The translations under genes and the position numbers were made by a program. The notes beneath the pieces are model-generated. The model worked only from the letters and a program-made list of their open reading frames with translations, did no database searches and was not told the DNA's origin. From contig JAPETS010000038.1 of NCBI GenBank assembly GCA_026023565.1, forward strand, positions 244,686-264,685: 20,000 nucleotides of DNA, written 5' to 3'. The stretch comes from Cirrosporium novae-zelandiae. Lineage: Eukaryota. Positions 1,248 through 19,812 of the stretch are shown here, in pieces. Numbering within the stretch: the first letter of the stretch is position 1; the number at the start of each line of letters is the position of its first letter.

Positions 1248-1683
1248 ATGCAATTCTCCATCATCGCCGTCATCGCCCTCGCTACCCAAGCCTTTGCTGG
1301 TAAGCCCTAGCCCCCACCTCCCTAATTAACACTCACACTAACACTCACTCACCCCCTTAGCCGCCATTCCCCCAACCACCTACAGCCTCTACATCCGGGA
1401 CCTCCTAACAACCACCAACACCAACGCCGCCACCGCCTGCAGCATCTGCACAACCGCCGCCCAATACAGTCTCGCAGTAAAAGACGCCATCGATACAAAG
1501 GAGGTCCTCAGCGACAACGCCAGCCAGGCCTTCGCGCTCCTGAACGTGTGCACTGAGGATCTGCTCAAGAATGAACCGTCCTGCCCCACACTTATGAGCG
1601 GAGTTTTTATGAAGATGTTTAGTGAGATGAAACAAGAGCATGATCCGGTGGCTATCTGTAAGGCTGTGAGCCTTTGTGGGTGA
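1248..1683 (+). CDS. Small secreted saposin-like (SAPLIP / saposin B-type fold) protein, 124 aa; exons 1248-1299 and 1361-1683
   Basis: ATG in a strong context (catcaaaATG). Exon 1 encodes the signal peptide MQFSIIAVIALATQAFA. The 61-nt intron has GTAAGC (1300), branch ACTAAC (1337-1342) and TTAG (1360). The spliced frame reads AAIPPTTYSLYIRDLLTTTNTNAATACSICTTAAQYSLAVKDAIDTKEVLSDNASQAFALLNVCTEDLLKNEPSCPTLMSGVFMKMFSEMKQEHDPVAICKAVSLCG*. The Cys pattern C-x2-C-x33-C-x10-C-x24-C-x5-C, with P-x2-IC-x4-LC at the end, is the saposin signature. Confidence 0.88.
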
Positions 1684-2954: not shown

Positions 2955-5435
2955 TCACAACCTCCTAAAAACATTCCCACTCGCACTCCTCCTATCCCCC
3001 CCACCCTCACCCCCCACCCACCTCGGCCGTTTCCTCCCCGTATCCCCCCCTTCTCCTCCCTCCCCATCACTCCGTCCCTTAGCCTTAGCCGCCAAAAACG
3101 TAATTTCCTGATCCCCAACAACAGCAGCAGCATGTCCCTGCCCCTGCCCCTGTTGTTGAAAAGATCTAGAATTCGATTTCGACTTCGAAATCCGGGATCC
3201 GAAGGTTTGGTTTGAGTTGTTGGTCCAGTGGAGATGTTTATTGTTGGTGTTGGTGTTGGTGGCGTTTTTGGAGGAGGAAGCGGAGATTTGCATTTTGAGG
3301 GGTCGAGATTGGGATTGGGATTGGGATTTGTTTTGGTGATTGGAGCGCTTGTAGGAGGTGCTTGAGATGCGGTTTTTGTTGTTAGTGTCGGGTTCTGAGT
3401 CTGAGGTGTGATTGCGGGCATTTCTTCTGCTTTGTTGCTGGTTTTGATGGTGTTGGCGGGTGCGACGGTCGTCTTCGCTGTCGGATTCGGATCCGGATTC
3501 GGAGGAGCTGGATCCGGAGACAGAGTCCAGTTCTTCTTGTTCCACGGCCGTGAGGCCGCGTTCCCTACGGGAGTGAGGATTGAGGTTTGTAGAGTTGTCC
3601 GCGGTAGCGGTGTTGGTGCTGGGGTTGAGTTGGCGGAACTCGTGGGAAGTTTCGTCGATGGCAAAGTTTTCGTCTTGGAAGAGCTTGGAGAATCGGGAGT
3701 CGGTGAGGAGGGTGCGTGGGCCGGTTTTTTCTTGGGTGGGTTGGTCATTTGCTTCGGCTTCGGCTTCGGGTGCTGGGGCTTCGACATCTGCTTGCAGAGC
3801 AGTTTCGGCATCCACCATGTCGTCGTCTCCGCCTTTCTTGAGGACCCTCCGTGCCCTCCTCCGCTCGTTCCTCTCCTCGCGCTCGAGGAGCCGCTCCGCT
3901 AGTCGTCTGTTGACCTTGGCCGTGACCTTCTTCCCGCCACGGATTCTGCTCTCCCTCTCGGCATCGATCTTGGCCTTTACCTTCTTCGCCCGCTCCTCTT
4001 CCCACGTGAATGGGTCGCTTATCAATCTCGCCTCCTCGTACAGTTTCTGTGCCACAAAGTATCCATGCATGTATGGACGCAGCAGCGACGTCGTTCCGAT
4101 AAGGTGGTCGAGGTTCAAGGACGCGAGCTGCGGTTTCGTCAAAAATTTGTAGTTGTCGTATACCGCGCCGGTGCCGCTAGTAGCAGAGTTTGCGCTGAAG
4201 GCATTAGGATCTGTAGGATCGTCCGCCATTTCTTCGACTAGGTTGTCGAGGAATGAACACCATTTCGGTGCGGGGCCGAGCTGCGGGATAAAAAATGCAT
4301 GTTGCTGGCGTCCCTCGTTGGCTGTAAGGAGCATGCCGCTGTCCGGATACCATGCCACGTCGTTGAGATCTACAGCGGGCTCGACGGCCGTCCAGGGTGC
4401 GCCATTGTGCTGAGACCATATTTTTATGATGCGTTTATCCGAGGAAAGGATTTTGGGGTCGTCGGGGGAGAATGTGGATGCGGAAGCGAATGTTGTGGAG
4501 GACGGCGTCAGAAATTTTAGCGTCTGGATTGGATAGCCATAGCCTTGATCCTTTTTTAGAAGAGGTTTCGGAGAACGGAGGTCATAGAGGTATATTAGAC
4601 CGGTTGAAGTGCCGGTTGCGATGGTGAGGCCGCCACGGTGGAATTGTAAAGCTGTGATTTCAGGTCGAGGAGTAGATTCAGATGAGACAAAAGATGATTG
4701 GGGGGTCTGCAGGATACCGGCGCGGTTCTTGGACCGTGGATCAAAGAATTCAACAGTCCCTAATGAGGTTCCAAAGGCATAGAGGTTATGCGATTCTTCT
4801 GCAATGGAGGCGACGTTCACGCTCCCTGTATTAATACCACCCTGTAGCGCACCTCCACCGAGTGAATTTAGATCATCCCCACCAACATCAACCTCATAGC
4901 TGCGCATATAGCGGCCCACTTCGAGATTGAGGCGAAAGACCTCGCCAGACCCATCTTCGTTGACACCGACAGAAGGAACAAGAGCTTCGGCGGAGCGTTT
5001 ATCATACTGCAAATCACGACCATAGCGAGGCAGCCGGGTCTTATAATGGCAAGCTCCAGAAGTATGAAATTCCAACGACCGATCGCTCTGAAGATGTATC
5101 GATTTCGTATAATCAGACGAAAGAAGCTGGAACTTTATATTGAGGACTTCAGTGTGTCTCGCGAACGAGAGAGACAGCTGGGGGAGATAGTGGGTGTGTA
5201 TTTGTGGCTTGTAGGTCCCGGTGCTCATGATCCAGTCGCCATCTTCGCTAATACGGATGCATTGAGAAGCTTCTTCGAATTCGAAATCCTGCAGCAGTTC
5301 CACCCTGTTTGCATACTCGGGATCGGCTTTCAAGCTTCGTTTTCGTTTTCTTGCTAGCCATTCGGGGAGTGGGCGAGCGGTGGAAGATCCTGAGATGGTG
5401 TAGACTGGTACACCAGAGTGGGTTGTGAGCTTCAT
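2955..5435 (-). CDS. ENP2: Ribosome biogenesis protein ENP2 / nucleolar protein 10 (WD40 N-terminus, NUC153 motif), about 826 aa, intronless
   Basis: ORF 2955..5522. The first ATG, at 5435, gives MKLTTHSGVPVYTISG. Family motifs present: LPEWLARKRKRSLK, RVELLQDFEFEEAS, STGTYKPQ, IPQLGPAPKWCSFLDNLVEEM, YDNYKFLT, LLRPYMHGYF and the NUC153-like DSRFSKLFQDENFAIDETSHEFRQLNP. Confidence 0.95.
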   Translation of the reverse strand: MKLTTHSGVPVYTISGSSTARPLPEWLARKRKRSLKADPEYANRVELLQDFEFEEASQCIRISEDGDWIMSTGTYKPQIHTHYLPQLSLSFARHTEVLNIKFQLLSSDYTKSIHLQSDRSLEFHTSGACHYKTRLPRYGRDLQYDKRSAEALVPSVGVNEDGSGEVFRLNLEVGRYMRSYEVDVGGDDLNSLGGGALQGGINTGSVNVASIAEESHNLYAFGTSLGTVEFFDPRSKNRAGILQTPQSSFVSSESTPRPEITALQFHRGGLTIATGTSTGLIYLYDLRSPKPLLKKDQGYGYPIQTLKFLTPSSTTFASASTFSPDDPKILSSDKRIIKIWSQHNGAPWTAVEPAVDLNDVAWYPDSGMLLTANEGRQQHAFFIPQLGPAPKWCSFLDNLVEEMADDPTDPNAFSANSATSGTGAVYDNYKFLTKPQLASLNLDHLIGTTSLLRPYMHGYFVAQKLYEEARLISDPFTWEEERAKKVKAKIDAERESRIRGGKKVTAKVNRRLAERLLEREERNERRRARRVLKKGGDDDMVDAETALQADVEAPAPEAEAEANDQPTQEKTGPRTLLTDSRFSKLFQDENFAIDETSHEFRQLNPSTNTATADNSTNLNPHSRRERGLTAVEQEELDSVSGSSSSESGSESDSEDDRRTRQHHQNQQQSRRNARNHTSDSEPDTNNKNRISSTSYKRSNHQNKSQSQSQSRPLKMQISASSSKNATNTNTNNKHLHWTNNSNQTFGSRISKSKSNSRSFQQQGQGQGHAAAVVGDQEITFLAAKAKGRSDGEGGEGGDTGRKRPRWVGGEGGGDRRSASGNVFRRL

Positions 5436-5769
5436 GGCGACGAGGAAATGGCCACTTCTTGGCCTACCGAACTTCCCCAAATATTTTATAGTGGAAATGT
5501 AAAATATACAAAACGAAAGCACAAGTCAGAAATCTGAAAAGTCAACAACTTTTTTTTTGCCAAGATTTTGTAGGTAAATTAAGCTTAACTCGTTTATCCG
5601 ATAGGGCTGACTCCCCTCCATCAATCAACATAAAAATAAAACTTGCTATTACTTTTACTACAGTTTACGATATTTACTTTTCATGATCCACAGGCCCATC
5701 CGGCCTTTCCATTTCTCAAACACCAGTTTCTCTAGGTCTATAACACTCGTTCGATCCAAAAGAAGAAGA
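5436..5769. promoter_or_regulatory. Short bidirectional promoter region shared by divergent ENP2 and MEU1
   Basis: Head-to-head starts only 334 bp apart (247 bp if the ATG at 5683 is used). AT-rich, with a poly-T tract near 5550-5558 and a GATA-containing near-palindrome TTATCCGATAG near 5595-5605. Confidence 0.6.
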
Positions 5770-6886
5770 ATGGCAGACCTCCCAACCACCTACGCTGGTG
5801 AGAGAATCCAGCAACCCCTCCCCCTCCCCCGCTTCCATCCATCACAGCCTCCAAAACTCATTCTCACCCACAATCCCCAGATCCGGTTCACATCGCCGTC
5901 ATCGGTGGCACAGGCCTGAAATCACTCCCCCATTTCACGCAAGTCGCAACCCTGAACCCCACAACCCCTTGGGGCGCCCCCTCCTCTCCAATTTCCATCC
6001 TGCACCACCCGTCACCAACAACCGGTGCCCCAATCCCCATCGCCTTCATCAGCAGACACGGCCTGCACCATGAACTGGCCCCGCATGAGATTCCCTCGCG
6101 CGCAAACATCTCCGCGCTTCGCTCCATAGGCGTGCGTACCATCATCGCCTTCTCCGCCGTCGGGAGCCTACAGGAGGAAATTAGACCTAGGGATTTCGTC
6201 GTCCCGGATCAAATTATCGATCGCACAAAGGGCGTGAGGCCATGGACGTTTTTTGAAAATGGCATGGTCGGACATGTCGGGTTTGCGGATCCGTTCGACG
6301 GGGCTCTGGCTAAGGTGGTGAGGACCTGCGGACACAGTCTGGAGGGTGATGGCGTCAAGCTGCACGATCAGGGCACACTAGTCTGCATGGGTAAGCAAGC
6401 TCCCAATCTACCGTACACCCATACACCCTTCACCTCAGATTACTCTTACCCAGAAATTCTAACCCCGCCCTCTCAAACTAAACAGAAGGCCCCCAATTCA
6501 GCACCCGCGCCGAATCAAACCTCTACCGCCAATGGGGCGGCTCCGTAATAAACATGTCCGCCCTGCCCGAAGCCAAACTCGCGCGCGAAGCTGAAATCGC
6601 CTACCAAATGATCTGCATGTCCACAGACTACGACTGCTGGCACGCCACCACCGAAGACGTAACCGTCGAAATGGTCATGGGACACATGAAGGCTAATGCG
6701 GATAATGCGAGAAGGTTTGTGGGCGCCGTTTTGGATGAGCTGAGTAAGGAAGAACATAAGGAGTTGGTATGCGCGAAGCATTTGGAGGGGCAGGCGAGGT
6801 TTGCGACGGGGATGACGGGGAGGGAGGGGAGGGGGGAGGAGACGGTGAAGAGGTTGAGGTACTTGTTTCCGGGGTATTATGACTAA
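5770..6886 (+). CDS. MEU1: S-methyl-5'-thioadenosine phosphorylase (MTAP, PNP/MTAP family), about 312 aa; exons 5770-5797, 5881-6390, 6486-6886; optional in-frame upstream ATG at 5683
   Basis: Introns GTGAGA (5798) to CCCAG (5880) and GTAAGC (6391), CTAAC, to AACAG (6485) join MADLPTTYA/DPVHIAVIGGTGL, TPWGAPSSPI, AFISRHG, PSRANISAL, SAVGSLQEEIRPRDFVVPDQIIDRTKG, CM/EGPQFSTRAESNLYR and INMSALPEAKLAREAEIAYQMICMSTDYDCW. These are characteristic MTAP motifs. Confidence 0.95.
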
Positions 6887-7614: not shown

Positions 7615-10426
7615 TCAGAGAAGAGCAGACGATCCTTTACTACTTAATTTCTGGTATGCGTCTGCCACTGGACTCCCTTCTATTTCCATGGTGCTAGTCC
7701 GACTATTCAATCCGCCTTTGATTTTCCCTTTTCTGAATCGCTTTGCCCACCCTACTGGCTCCTCTCCGCTTTCAATATACAGGTGGTCTTCCTCCATCTT
7801 CACGAACCACGCAACCTCAAACTGGTGGTTTTCTGGCCCGGCTCCACAGGCTCCAGCCATTAGGTTTGAAGGGGGAGAGTTGACGGAAATGGAAAAGAGG
7901 TTTTGGGGTTCTGTGTAGTCGGTTACGTAGGAACGGTTTTTGATGAGATAGCCGAAGCAGAAGACGTTGAAGAGGAAGACGGGGAAGAGGACTAGGAAGA
8001 ATACGTTTTGCCACTGTTTTTGGCTGCCGGAAGCGTAATCGATTTGTTGGAAGCTGGCGTTAAAGGCCTCGTAGGTGGGAGACGCGAGAGGGTTTGTGGG
8101 GTAGTTTTGGTCTGCCCAAGAATGGGAAAAGGTGGCATCCTGAGAGGATAGAAGGAGAGTGCAGCCTGCGAGAACGGCGAGAGCTTCCGCAATTGAGGGG
8201 AGAGAAGAGGAAAGCTGGTACTTGGTCGGGATGAGTTGTGTGAGGAGACGAGCATTGGCGGCTGCTCCGTCAGATATACCGGCTCCGAGAGAGAGTGAAT
8301 TGGCCCATTCCGAAGCAACATTTTTCCAGTCTGGCTCTGGGACCCCTTGTGGTGCGTCTGGAACTGAGCGAGAGTAGGCATCTTTATCATTCGGATCATT
8401 GCAATGCGCCGCAATTGTTCCTCCAGAGTAGGAAGCGTTGAAGCGCGTCGAGCAGTTTGGAGATAATGTCGCTTTGAGAGAGCAAAGGACGTAAGGGGGG
8501 TCCATATCAGGCGTTACAGAGCCTTCCTTGGCAGGTGAGGCTGCAAGAATATAGATCGCATTTGAAATATAATTCCCTCTGTTTAAACCTGTGCCGTTGA
8601 CGAGCGTATTAAATGGGAGAGGAACTTTTGGAAATATTGGAGGATTTTGGCCTCCTTTGCTAATATTCCCAAAGCCAAATAGATCGTCGACAACAGTTGA
8701 ATTAAACCAATGGCCTAGAGAAGGTAAGTTGGAAGGTGGCGAACTAACCCAAGTGGTATCATTAAAGGTATGATTGGTCCCATTCCAGGCGGTATAGATT
8801 AGCGGTGCTAGTTCATCTGCAGTCATTCCAGCACAAAGGACGTTGACAGAAGGCGATGGAACGGAAGCGATAAGATGATACTCGCCAGCTCCACCTAAAT
8901 CATCTGGTTGCATAATTCCATTGCGTTCGTTCTGAGCAGCAGTGTACACGTTGCTGTGAGGCATTGCTAATGTGACATTATTTATTAGTCTTCCATGCTT
9001 CTGTGATACTTCAGTAATGTTCACAACGTCAATCCAACTTCCTTTGACCGTCGTGTTGTCATACATAAGTCCAACAGCGTTAGGACGTTTGGTAAGGTCT
9101 ATAGATGTATCATTGCCGCTGTTGATCTGATCAGTCCAAACGGATAGGAAGGCTTGGTAATTGTGATACGCTTGTCCTGCATGCTCGATCTGTAAACATG
9201 TGGTACCTCCGTATAGCGGATCGGCTGATTTTTGAATAGGGGTTGGACAAGTATCCGATAAGTACTGAGGGTTGGCAAAGCTCGTCATCACTAGGCCATG
9301 CATGACCCTTGATTTGAGATTTCCGAATCTCAGACTTGGGCTGACAAGTGTTTCTGCGGCGGTGGTGTAAAACATTGCCATAAGAGTGGCTAGCAGTGTT
9401 GTTATCCCAATAAAAGAAAGAGCCGCATATCGTAATGTCGACCAATGCGTAATAAGTGTTCCTGGCTGCATAATCCATCCCCTCATCATCATTTGTGCGA
9501 TTGTCACTCCTTTTCCACCTGTCACGAAAGCTTCCCGGCTCAATACTTGCCCTAGAACAGCTACAAAAACCGTCACAAACGACAATTCAATGGTTTTTGC
9601 GAAGAGAGCGCTTAAAGTCTGTGCCGTGTCTGGTGAGAGACCCCCCGATTCTTTGATGCGTTGACCATAGTGAGGCCGTATGAAAGCTAGCAGGAGAAAT
9701 ATCCCAGAGAAGATCATAGAATATATGGATAGGATCATAATGGTCACTGAAAGCCACGACAGACCTCTTTGTTCTATAGGGCGATTTGATTTGCATCCTA
9801 GGTTGAGCGGCCGGCCTATTGGGTATGTTTAGCCAACCACGACGCTGGTACGGTATACGGGTATTCTCACCTCCATAACCCCCATAAGCTAGCCCGAGAG
9901 TAGAAGACGAAGCTCGGGGATATAAACGCCTAGTATCTGAGATAATTGAATATGAGTCGTAAAGAGATGATGGTTTTGATTTGTAAGCGGTATCTTCGTC
10001 ATCAGATGCATCAATGTCATGAAATTCCTCGGATTTTGGAGTTGGCTCGGGTCCAAAAGAAGAGCCAGTTAATAATGGATCCCCAGATCCTGGGGTTTGG
10101 AATGGAGGAGTCACGCCGGACTCTTGCCTTTGACCTCCGGATTTGGTATCCTCGTTACCGGTGGCAATACCCAAGCCATGTTTGTTTCGTATGTGGTGAT
10201 TGACGCTCTGCGAAAGGTCTCCTTCTTCGTCATCGTCAATTGGAGGTAGGTGTCCATATTTTTGAGATCGTCTGCTTGCTGTCGAAGGGTTCCGTCGAAA
10301 AATGTGTCGAGAATGAACAGTTGGAGAGGTGACGGTGATAACAGGGCTCGGTGGAGACTCGTCGGTCAGATCAGCAGTTTGTCTGTTTGTAAGACGACGC
10401 TGATCATTCTCAGATGTCGACGACAT
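7615..10426 (-). CDS. Uncharacterised fungal multi-pass membrane protein, about 918 aa; exons 10426-9871 and 9815-7615
   Basis: ORFs 9587..10426 and 7615..9747 are joined by a 55-nt phase-1 intron (minus-strand GTGAGA at 9870, GCTAAAC, AATAG ending 9816), giving GYG/GRPLNLGCKSNRPIEQRGLSWLSVTIMILS. The product has a disordered S/P/D-rich N-terminus, about 3 hydrophobic helices, a long Cys- and N-x-S/T-rich region, and a C-terminal TM helix (VFFLVLFPVFLFNVFCFGYLI). Confidence 0.85.
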
Positions 10427-11434
10427 GAGGAAGCATCCAACTCCTGTCTCGGGTGAATTGGAGTTTGCCTTTTCTTATTTCTAAAACGGAAGGTCGATAT
10501 GAGGTCAAAAGCATAGGGATGGAAGGCCAAGATTCTTGTTTTTAAGATGACGACGGTAGTTAACCTTTACCCTGGAATGGGGGGTCGTAAGGCTGGCTTA
10601 TGGAAATCAAGAAAGGCAATATCTTCACTAATCAGTGATTCCTTCACCAACCACAAGAGTAATTAATGATCAACACACCTTTTCGGAGTCTTGGCTGCAC
10701 AACGGTCAAGGCGAGAACAACAAGCGTGGCAATCAACGACAATGATGAAAGACGTGTAACGTATGTATCAATTCTGTCAGAATTGAGAGAAAATATCCAC
10801 CTGCTGGTCTTTGCTTCCTAAGTGTGCCTCCTTATCCCGGGGTACTTTTTCCTTCCCGATTCCCATGTGTCATGCTTGTGCCATGTTTGTGCCTTAACTC
10901 TGTTCGACATTTTTCAGCTGTGGAAGTATCAACAAAGTATGGCCCCCATTCTCTTTCCATTGCTCCAAAAGGTCCGCCAAGAGAATGTGGCTCTCGGGGC
11001 TGAAGGATCAACTGAGTTCTCACCACCCATTCTCTTATCAAGCTGCTATTCGTAGAAGTCCTGGGTTAATTTCGATACCAATAGTGTATTTGGTGGCAAT
11101 TATTCTGTTTGCATCTTTCTCGGTGTTGAAGCTGACACATTGTAGTAATATTTGTTTTATTGCTGGGAGCTGAGAGGTTTCAACCGAGTTGATATGCTTC
11201 TTTCTATCTATAGTTAGATTAGGCTGCGTTAGATTGTTAAAATGCGACAACAACAAAAAGTATTCGTCGTTGTTTCATGAACCGTCATCATCATCCTTCC
11301 GTATATAATCATTAACATACATAGAAATCCTGGGTAAGAGCTTTTGATGATAATATAATAATAGGTTGACAAAGTTTTCACTTCGTTAGGGTACCATCCA
11401 GGAATATACCTCATTCTCGTTCATTCCTTCACAA

Positions 11435-12175: not shown

Positions 12176-14392
12176 GCTTGCTCTTGAGATTCAAGGAAAG
12201 ATGAAGCCGAAGAGATCGAAGCTGATAAGCCGCGTGGGTTTAAAAAAGCAATAAGAAATAGCCTGCGCCGAGCCGCAGGTCACTAGGACCTGGGTGGTGG
12301 TGAAGGGTGAATCGGCTTCTGCTGATATCTCAGGCAGAAATTATTTGAGCGACCAGAGTATATACAATCAATTGATATCAAAATTATAGTGATGCATTTT
12401 CTCCCCATGCGAACCTTGGTCCACCTATATATCCTTTTGTTACCAGCCCCACCCCTCAACCTCAGCACAAGGTTCTCCAGCATCTTCACATAAAGCCTGT
12501 CTGGGATAGCTACACGCCAAGCGCAAATAGAACCTCCCAAACACAATGCCAATGTTCAAACATCCATGCAGCGCTTACTTCGCACACCAAACAGAAATCT
12601 CTACGGTGATACATGTTTCGAGTGTGACCGCCAAGCAACCACAATCAATATGATTGGATGTGGGGAGGGGATCCACAGACTTGCATTTTGCCTAGCCGCC
12701 TTGCACATAGGACCCAAGGTCGGCGGCTACCAGGTTGGCAACTTTGACAGGTTGAAGAGGACCAAAAATATTTAAGCTGCGGGTTTTAAGATTAAAATAG
12801 ATCCTTGCAGTAGTTAAGGATAGTTAATCTGCTCCACATGAGCAAAGAAGCATAATTTGCATTCATTTTTCATCAGACGTCATTGGATCTCTGAAGATTT
12901 CTAGTATTGATTCAGCTGGCACCTTTACCGCCAATTATCCCGTGTTTTTTTTTATCAAATCTACAGTCTGTTGTTAAAATTATGGATTAGCATTGCACCA
13001 GTAAATATATAGCACGTTGCCCTCCACCATTATTCTGCGACAAATTTATCATCGTAGACCAAACCTGGGATGTCTTACTGGCATCTATTTAGCGACGTGG
13101 ATTTAAGGGTAGCTGTTAGAAGGAGAGTCAGCCCTTCGAGATATAATTATGGATGAGACGAATTTGAAATGCTAGTCCATTAGTTCTGGAGAAATCACTA
13201 TAAACCCACGTAGTATTTTCCGCAGAGATGTTTGGAACTATCTTGTCGTCCACGGGATCTAGTTAATAATCCATGTCAATTCTAAAGTACTAATCAGGCA
13301 TCTCCTTCAGAAAGCTATCTCAAGATGCAATTTGCGAATATTGCAAAATACTTCTTCAGGCATTTCCAAAACACAATATTCCCCAAAGAGAATGAATCAG
13401 ATCGAACAAACCTGTAGATGCCAAGTAACTTTATGCTAGTTGTAATTACTTTAGCAAGAGTATGTAGTTGACGCTGCCACGTCACTATAGCATTCACCCA
13501 AATCACCCCGAAGCAAACGGCGTTGGCTCGAATGTTTCGTTTAGGACTTCACTTTAGTAGCAGGTTTTGAGCCTGGCGGATATTAGGAGTTTCGGCTGCG
13601 GAAAGCGACGTATGGCTGATTGGATAGCTTTCAAATTGTTTCCTTAGTAAAAATTCTTCTTGGGCTCCCGAGAAAGCATTAGAAGCGTCTTTATTTTGTA
13701 GCCAAGGTCAAGGTTCTCTTTTTATTCAGCCAAGTCATCAAGAAAGTAGAAGTTGATCCCCCCTCGTACGAGGACAGTGACTCGATATGATGAACTATGA
13801 TGGAAAGAGGGCCAGATATTCTTTGGATTGTTGTCAGGTTCGTTGTTCTCAGGATAAGGCCATTGATAGAGTAGTAGCTCAAGCTAGTGCAAAGTCACTG
13901 GAGAAAGGCAGATGATTGTTGATAGACAGGGTAGATTGATAGAAAGATAGAAATATAAATGATTAGACTAGCTGTACTCGTAGGTTAAAAAACCAGCACG
14001 GGACTCTCAGCGATCAGTGTGATTGGTTTTAAAACAAAACTAGTCCTCGCTAGGATTAGCACAATACGGGCATCGAGGAGGAGTTCACAGCAACGGCCAG
14101 CCACCAGCTACTTTAAATCTAACAAAGCCAAAGCAGCTATCCATTTCATCCATTCACTCTCTCTTACAATAACTACAATCTGGGTTTTAACAACCTATCT
14201 TACATATATGACTCTACAAAAATAAAGAAAGTGTTTCGTGAAGATATGGTGAATCACCTGTGCTCCAAGTGCTGAAAGTGGAAGCTCTGTCGCATTGACT
14301 TGGAAAGCTCCGCTTTGATGCATATACATTGGTTGATCACGTACAATCCCGCCCTCCATTTCGAACACGTTACGGCGACCTCAGCTTCAAAA

Positions 14393-16975
14393 ATGAATGA
14401 AGAGAAGTTGCTACAAACATCGAGTTCTATCACAGAAGAACTCTTAGAAGGCAAATCAGAATCCGATATCGAGTCACAAGCTTCTGAAAGCTCGCCTCAA
14501 ACTCCCGTCCCCTCCGGTTCAAGCCACGCAATACAAGACATTTCCAAACAACTTGATAATGCTCGCGATGCCCTTTCATCCAAGGAACATCATCCCATGA
14601 GACTCTTAGATCTCCCTGTTGATGTTCTCAAAGAGATTGTGAAAGAACTCACACATACAAATGATCTTGCCGCTCTCGCTTTGACCCATTCCGCTCTACA
14701 CAAATTGGCTGTGCCTCACATATACTCTCGATTTGATATCGTTTGGCCTGATACACATGCAACTGCAGATCCACGTACGGGTGTAGATGCTCTTACATAT
14801 GGCCTCGCTACTTTGGTTATGGGGGAGGAGATGTTCACTGATCGACATACACATATCCAAACTTCGAGCCATAAATGCAGTCAATGTGGTCATGTAGACA
14901 ATGCTGATCCTACATCTTTGCAGGTGCCTTTTCAGCCTACACGACGTTATGGGAATAATTTTGCTCAGTTCACTCGCAAATTCTCACTTGGAAATGGTCC
15001 TCCGGATTGGGTATCCGAATACATGATCAACAAAGAAAGTGGAAAAATGCTGGGTACACTTGTGGCTCTTGCAATTGCCCGGATGCCATTCCTTGAGACG
15101 TTTGTTTGGGATATGCCTACTGGAGTGCTCCGGGATGTCTGGCTTGCTCTTGCCTCTATCGCGGAACGTCACGGGGGGCAGAATTGCCGACTTGAGAGGG
15201 TATGGGTCAGGTGGCACGATAACAGAGACAGTCTCCATCTTGTGTCTCAAACTCCTCTAGCGCCTGGAAATCAAGGGTTTACAGCTGCATCTGCCGCGCT
15301 ATTCTCCAACTCTACCCAGACTGGAATACCCACGGTTGTGCCCCCAGGAGTTCCCGCCGTGGCACCAACGACAATTCCTACAGGGCCGCACATAATCATT
15401 TCTCCTTCCGTGCCCCACTTACAAGTTCAAAGTCGTGTTGAATACCCCACTTTTTCTGTTCTGCCTCCTTTGAAGAGTTTGAGCGTTCTGGATATCGACG
15501 AACTTGCATATATCAAAGAGATGAGCATACTTATTGGACGATCAAAAAATAAATTGCGAGAGCTGCGAGTAGGAATTGCTAAACATGCAGTTGATACTGT
15601 TTGGGCAAAAGCATCAGAACCCGTTCAAATGGGAGTTCTAGGGCTCTTGACTAGCGAACTCGACTTTCCTGGGGGGATAAATATTTCTTCTGGCCACAGA
15701 GAACGAAATAATCAGTCAGTTCAGAAAGATATGGTCGAGGCAGTAGAAAAGCCCTCAGTATCCGAGTCCATATCGACAGAATCCGGAACGGACGTCAATT
15801 CCTTGCATCAGATGCCGTCTACGGTCCTACGCACTCTGCCAGTGCATAACCGAACCCCCAAAGAAAAGTTACGCCTCGAAATCTTGGAACTCGAACGAAC
15901 CACTCTATCCGTGCCGGTGCTACAAAGGGTTATCGACTGGTCACTTCTAACAACCTTAACTATCCTCCATTGTCCCAACCATGAACATCTGTGGAAGGCA
16001 CTCCGCCATACTTTTGCACCACGGTCTTCTGCTAGTCAGAAGCCACCGTCTCTACAAGACTCCCCAGCCCGACTAGGTTATTCCATATTCAACCGTTCTC
16101 GACCTCCCAGGCCGATGAGAAGTGAATATAAACTGAACCTGAAGCGCATACATACAAACATGGTCTCCAATTCCCTCATAACATTCCTTAAAGATGCTCT
16201 TGCGCCGGATAGCCTGGAGTGGTTGTTCTTGCAGGAGTCTCGCCTTTATCCATCCCCAGTTACCATTGACGCAATCTTCAAAGGGGCCATCAAAAAGCAC
16301 CGAGGAAGCCTCAAAAGGCTGATGGTTGATAGCTCAGAACGGATGGACAATGGTCAACTTGCTGCTAACGAAAAATGGAAGAAGTGGATGTTCCCCCGAG
16401 ATCTGCTAAAATTTATCACGAGTGGAAGTATGGGCAATCTTCGGGAACTTGGGATGGCCTTAGATTACCGGGACTGGCACTTTTTTTTGCAGAGCCTTCC
16501 ACGGATCAAACATATTCGCTCATTATACATTCCCTTCCTATCAAGCCATGTCGGGAACATGGATGCACGAGAATTGGCAATGCAGGTTCTAGATACTGTT
16601 TCATTGCGTCCTGAGATTGAACTGTGCTATGTTGGTCTCCGAACCAAATGCTTTGAGATCCTCGAAGGGAAACCAGGCGATGGACGAGACGGCTATGATG
16701 ATCCTATGAATTTGGATCATGGGTCTACAGGCGCTGGGGATTCAGATGGAGAGAGTGACGATGAGGAAACAGACGATGATGATGATGGTGATACGGGGAC
16801 TGTGCCTGCTGGTGATCCATTTGACTCACAATCAGATACATCTTCGAATCCATATGCATCATCGGAAGATGGAAGTGTACTTGATGAAAGGTTTGAGCCA
16901 AAACTTAGGTTGAGGGAGATTCTTTTCTACGATGATAAGGTTTCGGTGTTCAAGGTGCGGCATGGAAGATTATGA
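14393..16975 (+). CDS. F-box domain protein with LRR/RNI-like repeats, about 860 aa, intronless (in-frame upstream ATG at 14318 also possible)
   Basis: Long uninterrupted ORF 14300..16975. The ATG at 14393 has a good context (tcaaaaATG). F-box motif LLDLPVDVLKEIVKELTHTNDLAALALTHSALHKLA; repeated LxxLxL-like units (LKSLSV, LRELRV, LTTLTI, LEWLFL, LKRLMV, LRELGM, IRSLYI); acidic stretch before the C-terminal LRLREILFYDDKVSVFKVRHGRL. Confidence 0.88.
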   Translation: MNEEKLLQTSSSITEELLEGKSESDIESQASESSPQTPVPSGSSHAIQDISKQLDNARDALSSKEHHPMRLLDLPVDVLKEIVKELTHTNDLAALALTHSALHKLAVPHIYSRFDIVWPDTHATADPRTGVDALTYGLATLVMGEEMFTDRHTHIQTSSHKCSQCGHVDNADPTSLQVPFQPTRRYGNNFAQFTRKFSLGNGPPDWVSEYMINKESGKMLGTLVALAIARMPFLETFVWDMPTGVLRDVWLALASIAERHGGQNCRLERVWVRWHDNRDSLHLVSQTPLAPGNQGFTAASAALFSNSTQTGIPTVVPPGVPAVAPTTIPTGPHIIISPSVPHLQVQSRVEYPTFSVLPPLKSLSVLDIDELAYIKEMSILIGRSKNKLRELRVGIAKHAVDTVWAKASEPVQMGVLGLLTSELDFPGGINISSGHRERNNQSVQKDMVEAVEKPSVSESISTESGTDVNSLHQMPSTVLRTLPVHNRTPKEKLRLEILELERTTLSVPVLQRVIDWSLLTTLTILHCPNHEHLWKALRHTFAPRSSASQKPPSLQDSPARLGYSIFNRSRPPRPMRSEYKLNLKRIHTNMVSNSLITFLKDALAPDSLEWLFLQESRLYPSPVTIDAIFKGAIKKHRGSLKRLMVDSSERMDNGQLAANEKWKKWMFPRDLLKFITSGSMGNLRELGMALDYRDWHFFLQSLPRIKHIRSLYIPFLSSHVGNMDARELAMQVLDTVSLRPEIELCYVGLRTKCFEILEGKPGDGRDGYDDPMNLDHGSTGAGDSDGESDDEETDDDDDGDTGTVPAGDPFDSQSDTSSNPYASSEDGSVLDERFEPKLRLREILFYDDKVSVFKVRHGRL

Positions 16976-17658: not shown

Positions 17659-19812
17659 ATGAGAATTCTTTATGCCATTCGGAGACTCTTCTCCCTCAAT
17701 ACCCTAGACACTCGCTTTACCACTTCTTCATCCACTCCACCAAGAGACCGCGACAGAGTTAGCAATACAAATCAGAATGAAAGAGATAGACAAAAGAACC
17801 GGCTAGGGGTGAAGCCGCCATTATGGAAGACGCCCGAATTTTGTGTATATATTGTCCTTGTCGTGGCTGCTGTGCTTTCGATGGTGAAAACAGGGATGGA
17901 TATTTCGAAAGGTCAGCAGTATAAGATGGGAATTGCAAAAGAAGTCCATGAAGCTCGGATACTTGCGACTGATGCTCAGCGGCTGACTTGAAGATCTTTC
18001 AGAATCCCATCCGAATTATGAAAAATATCAGTACCTTCTTTCTCCTGGTTGGATTCCTGGTAGGAAAGTGGTATGTTCAGAACAGCGCTCAATTAGTATC
18101 CTTTACCATCTCGAGATAGAATGAATGCTAACAATCTATTTTCTTTTCCTTTTTAGGATAACTCTGATCGCCAATATGCTTCGTTTCGAAATAATATACC
18201 CTACTTACTCGTTCTTCTTATCTTACACCCTTTACTTCGCCGATTGTATGAATACATTGCTGGTGTGATTGACGGCGACAGTCTAACCAGCCTCCGCCCC
18301 TCGTCCCCTGCACGCGCATTTATAAACCCAACCAGACTAAGGCGGCGGATTCGATTTGACCTTTTCTGGAGCGCTATATTTCTCGTCGCGTTGCATGGAA
18401 TTTCAGCGTTCAAGATTCTCATGATATTATACATCAATTTCACCATTGTAACAAACCTTCCTCGGTCGCAGATCCCGGCATTTACATGGATCTTCAACAT
18501 AGGCACATTATTTGCAAACGAGCTTTCCACCGGCTATCGGTTTGCTCGCATCGCATCCGTGACCGCTCCTTATGCAAGACTCGAGGAGGCCATCAATTGG
18601 GGTGCTTGGCTTGATAGCTTTGGGGGTTTGATTCCCCGGTGGGAGGTTCTGTTCAACATCACCGTTCTGCGACTTATCAGTTTTAATTTGGATTACTATT
18701 GGAGCCTCGACCATGGTTCATCCAGTCCCCTCGAGGTGCTTAGCTAAAGAACCCTTTTGTTCCTCTTTCATTGAACCAACCTGCTAATCCGTTTCCTCAA
18801 GAAGAAACAACTCGACCCCTCCAACCTTTCGGAGCGTGATCGCATCTCCATCCCGCCGCCTCCATCCGTATTCGCATTCTCCTCCTACCTCTCATACGCC
18901 CTCTACTCACCCCTCTACCTAGCCGGCCCCATCTTAACCTTTAACGACTATATCTCGCAACTTTCATACCCACTCCCTACCATCTCAGTGCGCCGAAACT
19001 TGATGTACGGCATACGCTTCCTTTTCTGCCTACTCACCATGGAGCTAATGCTACACTACATTTACGCGGTAGCGATCTCCAAAGCGCAACCAGCATGGGA
19101 AGTCTACACGCCATTCCAGCTAAGCATGGTAGGTTACTTCAACCTCCACATCATCTGGCTCAAGCTGCTCCTCCCATGGCGATTTTTCCGCCTCTGGTCC
19201 CTATGCGACGGGATCGACCCACCCGAAAACATGGTGCGCTGCATGTCCAACAACTACAGCGCAATGGCCTTCTGGCGCGGATGGCATCGCTCCTTCAACC
19301 GGTGGATAACTCGCTACATCTACATCCCCCTAGGTGGCTCTCGCCCACCGCCATCTTCCACACCCCAACGCCAAACCACGCTCACCCTCGTCAAAACCAA
19401 AACCCGCACCATCCTAAACTTCCTCCTCGTATTCACCTTCGTCGCCCTCTGGCACGACATAAACCTCCGCCTCCTCATGTGGGGCTGGCTAATAACCCTC
19501 TTCGTTCTTCCCGAAATCCTCGCCCACCTCCTCTTCCCCGCCCGCAGATTCAAAACTCCGCGCCAGCAAACCATCTACCGCGTCCTGTGCGGTATCGGCG
19601 CCACCTTCAATATCCTCATGATGATGGTGGCGAATTTGGTGGGGTTTGCACTGGGTACGGAGGGGGTTAAGGGACTTATGGGCGGGATTGTGGGAAGTTG
19701 GGCTGGGTGGGGGTTTGTGGCGGCCGCTTTTGTGGTTTTGTATGTTGGGGCCCAGATGATGTTTGAGATAAGGGAGGAGGAAGGGAGACATGGGATTTTT
19801 ATGAAGTGTTGA
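17659..19812 (+). CDS. GUP1: Glycerol uptake protein 1 / membrane-bound O-acyltransferase (MBOAT, Gup1/HHAT family), about 636 aa; exons 17659-17911, 18003-18070, 18157-18735, 18802-19812
   Basis: Introns GTCAGC to TTCAG (17912-18002, branch CTGAC), GTATGT to TTTAG (18071-18156, branch CTAAC) and GTGCTT to CAAG (18736-18801, branch CTAAT) give SLNTLDTRF, LLSPGWIPGRKV/DNSDRQYASFR, RWEVLFNITVLRLISFNLDYYWS, KKQLDPSNLSERDR, YSPLYLAGPILTFNDY, WRFFRLW, DGIDPPENMVRCMSNNYS, FWRGWHRSFNRW, and the MBOAT His in FTFVALWHD. Confidence 0.95.

Follow-up and report, generated by a model that had tools for sequence, protein, structure and literature searches.

A candidate free-standing saposin-like protein encoded by a predicted two-exon gene of the ascomycete Cirrosporium novae-zelandiae

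Saposin-like proteins and their fungal precedents

Saposin-like proteins (SAPLIPs) of animals, amoebae and nematodes are versatile lipid handlers that serve as cofactors in the lysosome, as surfactant proteins or as antimicrobials that form pores, and solved examples include saposins (2dob, 1m12, 2gtg, 3bqp), amoebapore A (1of9), NK-lysin (1nkl) and caenopore-5 (2js9). NK-lysin is cationic, and amoebapores are said to be acidic. As free proteins, SAPLIPs are barely documented in Dikarya. InterPro lists some fungal SapB-domain proteins, and a literature search by title and the start of the abstract, conducted mostly outside subscription journals, returned no paper on a filamentous ascomycete in which a free SapB-type protein had been characterised.

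The fungal cases that have been described are of several kinds. In Mortierello-, Zoopago-, Glomero- and Mucoromycota, a SapB domain lies at the N-terminus of acid sphingomyelinases and is thus part of a large enzyme, which the accessible text of that report does not extend to Dikarya, whereas the protein considered here stands alone in an ascomycete (PMC13161914). Cbp1 of Histoplasma capsulatum was once reported to be structurally related to saposins (PMC5463121); in later crystal structures its fold is 'binocular' and differs from that of the earlier NMR model, and the available part of the same account confines the family to Ajellomycetaceae (PMC9255746). Like our protein in its predicted form, Cbp1 is small, secreted, negatively charged and helical, and it is described in the accessible portions of both papers as abundant and as holding three intramolecular disulfides (PMC5463121, PMC9255746). 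Fold recognition paired the 88-aa secreted candidate effector SS1G_12769 of Sclerotinia sclerotiorum with hookworm Na-SLP-1 (PMC4039746); as presented in the available text, its saposin likeness comes from threading only, and our comparison with it is by description. SapA of Drechmeria coniospora, likewise a small secreted protein, carries Saposin A-type (PF02199) domains and, in the part of the paper that could be consulted, no SapB domain (PMC4859500). The preliminary description of the present locus had taken fungal saposin domains to be known mainly as parts of larger enzymes; the view that free ones are unknown has to be qualified in the light of Cbp1, itself disputed (PMC9255746), and of the Sclerotinia candidate (PMC4039746), at least in the accessible portions of those papers.

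Against these systems, the protein from C. novae-zelandiae compares as follows. Like amoebapore A, NK-lysin and caenopore-5, it appears to consist of a signal peptide and a single SAPLIP domain of about 80 residues, but phmmer against PDB gave no direct sequence match between it and any of the three. With saposins A-D and prosaposin it shares the C-terminal motif, the hydrophobic core (19 of 21 columns), an acidic pI and predicted secretory entry, and prosaposin-type SapB domains are its only detectable sequence relatives. It differs from saposins in being a single domain that is not cut from a polyprotein, in its N-terminal extension, in its Pezizomycotina host and in being missed by Pfam models and by a single-sequence PDB search. 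The gaps between successive Cys residues are 2, 26-27, 9-10, 24 and 5 in 14 reference domains of the prosaposin type and 2, 33, 10, 24 and 5 in the query, so that only the Cys2-Cys3 gap is longer than in the SapB reference, by 6-7 residues; the HMM places these additional residues in helix 1 and the helix 1-2 loop.

Gene structure and predicted product

The window, by which we mean the whole stretch of 20,000 nucleotides that was analysed, comes from C. novae-zelandiae, a member of the small class Xylobotryomycetes within Pezizomycotina. The start codon, ATG at 1248-1250, was read directly from the sequence, and joining the two exons listed in Table 1 yields a 124-aa protein ending DPVAICKAVSLCG, with the coding part of exon 2 at 1361-1680. 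If left unspliced, the exon 1 frame would meet a stop after 20 codons. No usable start is present in the exon 2 frame, 1342-1683, and the default list of start-codon ORFs (at least 60 aa) does not include it, in keeping with the absence of the gene from the ORF track. The earlier claim of a spliced 124-aa gene that this track does not contain is thus borne out by the translation, by the ORF list and by a public protein: the NCBI entry 'MAG: hypothetical protein M1834_006124 [Cirrosporium novae-zelandiae]' is identical to the spliced product, an independent public annotation having picked the identical gene model.

Third-position GC is 0.71 in exon 1 and 0.69 in exon 2, similar to that of the neighbouring MBOAT gene (0.71), while the total GC of the flanks is 0.38-0.41. 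Judged by its canonical splice signals, its GC3, the leader, the complete Cys domain and the same model in the public annotation, the segment 1248-1683 looks like a real intron-containing fungal gene, predicted here from sequence features. The TATA-like box upstream of the ATG is a possible core promoter of this gene. Downstream, a G-rich stretch directly follows the TGA stop, and the 3' flank contains simple repeats of short length at 1733-1780, 1805-1820 and 2045-2070, namely tgctt-type units, a T run and cactcact units; the repeats and the G-rich stretch may represent 3' UTR or intergenic low-complexity sequence.

Table 1. Coordinates of the saposin-like gene, of segments of its predicted product and of neighbouring genes and frames in the window
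Feature	Position	Strand	Description
TATA-like box TATAAAAA	1018..1025	+	about 225 nt upstream of ATG; read from the sequence
Exon 1	1248..1299	+	52 nt, phase 1; ATG, 17-residue signal peptide MQFSIIAVIALATQAFA, first base of Ala18
Spliceosomal intron, predicted	1300..1360	+	61 nt; 5' GTAAGC, branch site ACTAAC 1337-1342, AG 1359-1360
Exon 2	1361..1683	+	residues 18-124; TGA stop 1681-1683
N-terminal extension of mature protein	1363..1428	+	residues 19-40; Pro/Thr/Asn-rich; short predicted helix
Saposin-like (SAPLIP) domain, putative	1429..1680	+	residues 41-124; six Cys at 44, 47, 81, 92, 117, 123
N-glycosylation sequon N70-A-S	1516..1524	+	sole sequon; 11 residues ahead of Cys3, where predicted helix 2 starts
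NOL10-like nucleolar WD40 protein	2958-5525	-	Pfam; ordinary neighbour
PNP_UDP_1 phosphorylase-superfamily protein	5802-6545	+	Pfam; ordinary neighbour
737 plus 295 aa open frames	7618-10474	-	no Pfam family at E<=0.001
899-aa open frame	14276-16972	+	no Pfam family at E<=0.001
MBOAT acyltransferase	18775-19809	+	Pfam; ordinary neighbour

The signal peptide, with cleavage before Ala18, was predicted by eye and from hydropathy, which is 2.1-2.3 over residues 1-16; the residues at -3 and -1 of the predicted cleavage site are small (A-F-A), and with them this value supports the reading of the segment as a secretory leader that had been put forward earlier. The N-terminal extension that follows, 22-25 residues in length and without a dibasic processing site, is left unaligned in all comparisons with saposin domains and has no counterpart in the canonical ones; a low-confidence AlphaFold model places a helix within it, at residues 4-17 of P0001. 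On re-reading, the positions of the six Cys proved identical to those first given, as did their spacing, C-x2-C-x33-C-x10-C-x24-C-x5-C, and when the mature sequence was shuffled 200000 times, a relaxed form of this pattern arose once. The preliminary description was equally right that there is a single sequon, N70-A-S, and that the mature part is net acidic, with 11 D/E vs 7 K/R, and its picture of a stand-alone single domain is supported as well. The net charge is -4 and the pI 4.68. Among the 14 reference saposin domains, 3 have a sequon, located 14 residues before Cys3.

Remote similarity to saposin B-type domains

Family models do not recognise the protein. Pfam hmmscan of the mature sequence, for which a SapB_1/SapB_2 match had been proposed as a check, returned no family even at E<=10, leaving SapB_1 (PF05184), SapB_2 (PF03489) and Saposin (PF20825) all unmatched, and phmmer against all PDB chain sequences, again at E<=10, found no saposin and only a spurious match to the RNF4 RING. 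An exhaustive phmmer/HMMER scan over 1,835,955,588 representative proteins with a cut-off of E<=0.001 retrieved three proteins. Besides the query, these were P0003 (E 1.5e-7, matched in 6 stretches) and P0004 (E 2.4e-5, matched in 7 stretches), both unnamed and of metagenome origin, with lengths of 678 and 692 aa. Pfam assigns 6-7 tandem SapB_1/SapB_2 domains to these two proteins, with E values from 1e-55 to 1e-81, and the profile of such prosaposin-like tandem domains finds its best matches in saposins A, C and D. When the query was aligned with residues 592-672 of P0004 by BLASTP, all six Cys fell in register, and its C-terminal motif, D-P-x-x-[IV]-C-K-x-[IVL]-x-L-C, aligned with every repeat. 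Single-domain identity to these nearest relatives is weak, at 23-34%, and database-level significance came only from targets with 6-7 repeats. As a lead only, language-model features put SapB or ARMET_N as the nearest named clusters (best 0.88, with 197 of 256 features in common).

Each of the two tandem proteins is almost wholly made up of 7 tandem saposin domains in about 680-690 aa; vertebrate prosaposin has four, fewer than either, according to the accessible part of the source (PMC4859500).

The hydrophobic core is largely retained: 21 columns are hydrophobic in at least 12 of the 14 reference domains, and the query has a hydrophobic residue in 19 of them, a count that includes Cys3, which is offset by one column. 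The placement of Cys3 differs by aligner, being shifted in MAFFT and in the top BLASTP segment and in six-Cys register in the HMM and in the P0004 alignment. MAFFT alignments that combined the query and the complete tandem proteins were visibly out of register and were kept out of the folding.

Because repeats can inflate chance likeness, four kinds of control were run. Against an HMM built from the 14 repeat domains of P0003 and P0004, the query scored 22.7 bits, a value reached by none of 2000 full shuffles of the query (maximum 10.9) and by none of 2000 shuffles in which the Cys residues were held fixed (maximum 20.3). Cys-fixed shuffles of the two targets scored at most 9.2 and 10.5 bits, compared with 47.7 and 40.6 for the real sequences (0 of 500 each). 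In the repeat-preserving decoys, the same column permutation was applied to every repeat, so that Cys, composition and repetition were all kept; their maxima were 14.3 and 16.0 bits, and 0 of 1000 each reached the real scores. The fourth control, hhalign, gave a probability of 93% for the C-terminal half. Applied to the six-frame translation of the window, the 14-domain HMM matched only the SAPLIP segment, at 22.3 bits with the next best at 5.5, and this profile scan found no second copy of the gene within the window. We interpret these data as supporting a real but very remote, statistically robust homology to true saposin B-type domains, as far as sequence comparison can carry it, and conclude that residues 41-124, the last 84 of the protein, probably constitute a true but highly diverged domain of this type.

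AlphaFold2, run twice without an alignment, produced models with pLDDT of 55.9 and 53.9, both all-helical, and in both low-pLDDT models helices start at Cys1/2, contain Cys3, follow Cys4 and contain Cys5, the expected placement around the Cys. Searches with these low-confidence models, by Foldseek vs PDB (twice) and by VIA-align wide (once), returned generic helical matches and no SAPLIP. The saposin fold is thus unconfirmed, given that both predictions are of low confidence and that no saposin emerged from the fold searches; models of this quality weigh neither for nor against it. Of the original saposin reading, then, the Cys framework and the remote homology (phmmer and decoys) have stood.

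Possible roles and what they would mean

Relatives of the protein are scarce. Word-indexed searches of 5.8 billion proteins returned the query itself only, the exhaustive scan of 1.84 billion proteins contained no orthologue or paralogue, and scans of viral contigs and of prokaryote genome contigs found no relative. Two metagenome loci suggested by tblastn were rejected as chance matches, one (L001) overlapping an opposite-strand ORF of 451 aa that resembles a membrane protein and the other (L002) lying inside an unrelated 180-aa frame. The word orphan is used here for a protein without a relative in these protein, viral, prokaryote and metagenome sets; the class is sparsely sequenced. Horizontal transfer was considered and set aside, the nearest relatives being only 23-34% identical, the intron being of fungal type and GC3 being like that of the neighbouring MBOAT gene.

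In the window, the Pfam assignments of the neighbours reveal no gene cluster, no linked hydrolase near the saposin-like gene and no hint of recent transfer. Functionally the neighbours are unconnected with it; the one conceivable exception, a lipid enzyme (the MBOAT acyltransferase) at a distance of 17 kb, is probably a coincidence. The long Pfam-negative frames could represent fungal genes from an unknown family or genes split by introns.

Cumulatively, our findings make it probable that the gene encodes an acidic secretory-pathway protein with a highly diverged C-terminal SAPLIP domain, most likely lipid-binding or membrane-perturbing. In the mechanism that we propose, a small acidic protein (pI about 4.7) would enter the secretory pathway by means of its 17-residue signal peptide, its 22-25-residue Thr/Pro-rich extension being followed by an 84-residue SAPLIP domain. 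By homology, this domain would form a four- to five-helix bundle locked by C44-C123, C47-C117 and C81-C92, with a hydrophobic interior that could be exposed to lipids as in other SAPLIPs. Membrane lipids would be bound, extracted or solubilised, probably best at acidic pH, with the space outside the hypha and the vacuole as the two possible sites of action. Fold, disulfide pairing, secretion, lipid binding and pH preference are features that we infer for this protein.

Two more specific functions can be considered, both of which appear rather unlikely at present and to a like degree. The protein might be a stand-alone pore-forming or antimicrobial SAPLIP that acts against bacteria, fungi or amoebae and oligomerises in target membranes at low pH. 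Its architecture would fit this role, being that of amoebapore A, NK-lysin and caenopore-5, as would the acidity that it shares with amoebapores and the lack of a linked hydrolase or gene cluster around it. However, with a net charge of -4 and a pI of 4.68 the protein has neither the net positive charge of the NK-lysin/granulysin type nor an NK-lysin-like cationic face, which speaks against a cationic mechanism of the NK-lysin type. Moreover, its sequence is not specifically closer to pore formers, its only detectable relatives being prosaposin-like tandem proteins, and the orphan, which is single-copy within the window, does not belong, as far as the window shows, to an expanded defence family.

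Alternatively, the protein could be a vacuolar activator of sphingolipid or glycolipid breakdown and thus a true saposin analogue, in which vacuolar hydrolases would receive their lipids from the domain and the extension would be a pro-segment or serve in sorting. The prosaposin type of its closest detectable relatives, the acidic pI, the presence of an extension after the signal peptide and a sequon near the position used in some saposin domains are all in keeping with such a role, but no recognised vacuolar sorting motif was identified in the protein and no partner hydrolase was found nearby. A housekeeping cofactor would also be expected to have fungal orthologues, and none was found in the protein searches.

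We consider it quite improbable that the protein is an unrelated orphan, secreted, Cys-rich and helical, which mimics the Cys spacing of saposins through convergence. The failure of Pfam and of PDB sequence searches to produce any match other than the spurious RNF4 hit, the absence of a saposin from all fold searches (with poor models), the orphan status in the databases searched and the precedent of Cbp1, whose likeness to saposins was later disputed in the accessible text of the structural report (PMC9255746), would each be compatible with convergence. Nevertheless, the observed similarity lies far above decoys that keep the Cys framework, composition and repeat structure, the hydrophobic core is kept in 19 of 21 columns, and the C-terminal motif is common to the saposin repeats, all of which favours homology. 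That the gene is an ab initio annotation artefact or an unexpressed decaying relic is very hard to credit, for although the database record is a singleton from a metagenome-assembled genome, the frame is intact, splice and branch signals are canonical, third-position GC bias is strong, and after the leader comes a complete six-Cys domain whose hydrophobic core is preserved.

The importance of the finding is modest for now, since it concerns a single orphan gene from one metagenome-assembled genome. On a broader and decidedly speculative view, which we think doubtful, Pezizomycotina would have kept, or re-invented from an ancient SapB domain, free secreted SAPLIPs that have drifted too far for family models to recognise; these would form a hidden class of membrane-active proteins, first seen here, that might act as antimicrobial or lipid-scavenging effectors on wood or in microbial communities. 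If the lipid-binding or membrane-perturbing SAPLIP that we propose is true, it would supply lipid-nanodisc or antimicrobial work with a candidate that is small and can be expressed. It would also indicate that Pfam-negative Cys-framework proteins of fungal secretomes can conceal known folds, and a stand-alone fungal SAPLIP would widen the range of the family.
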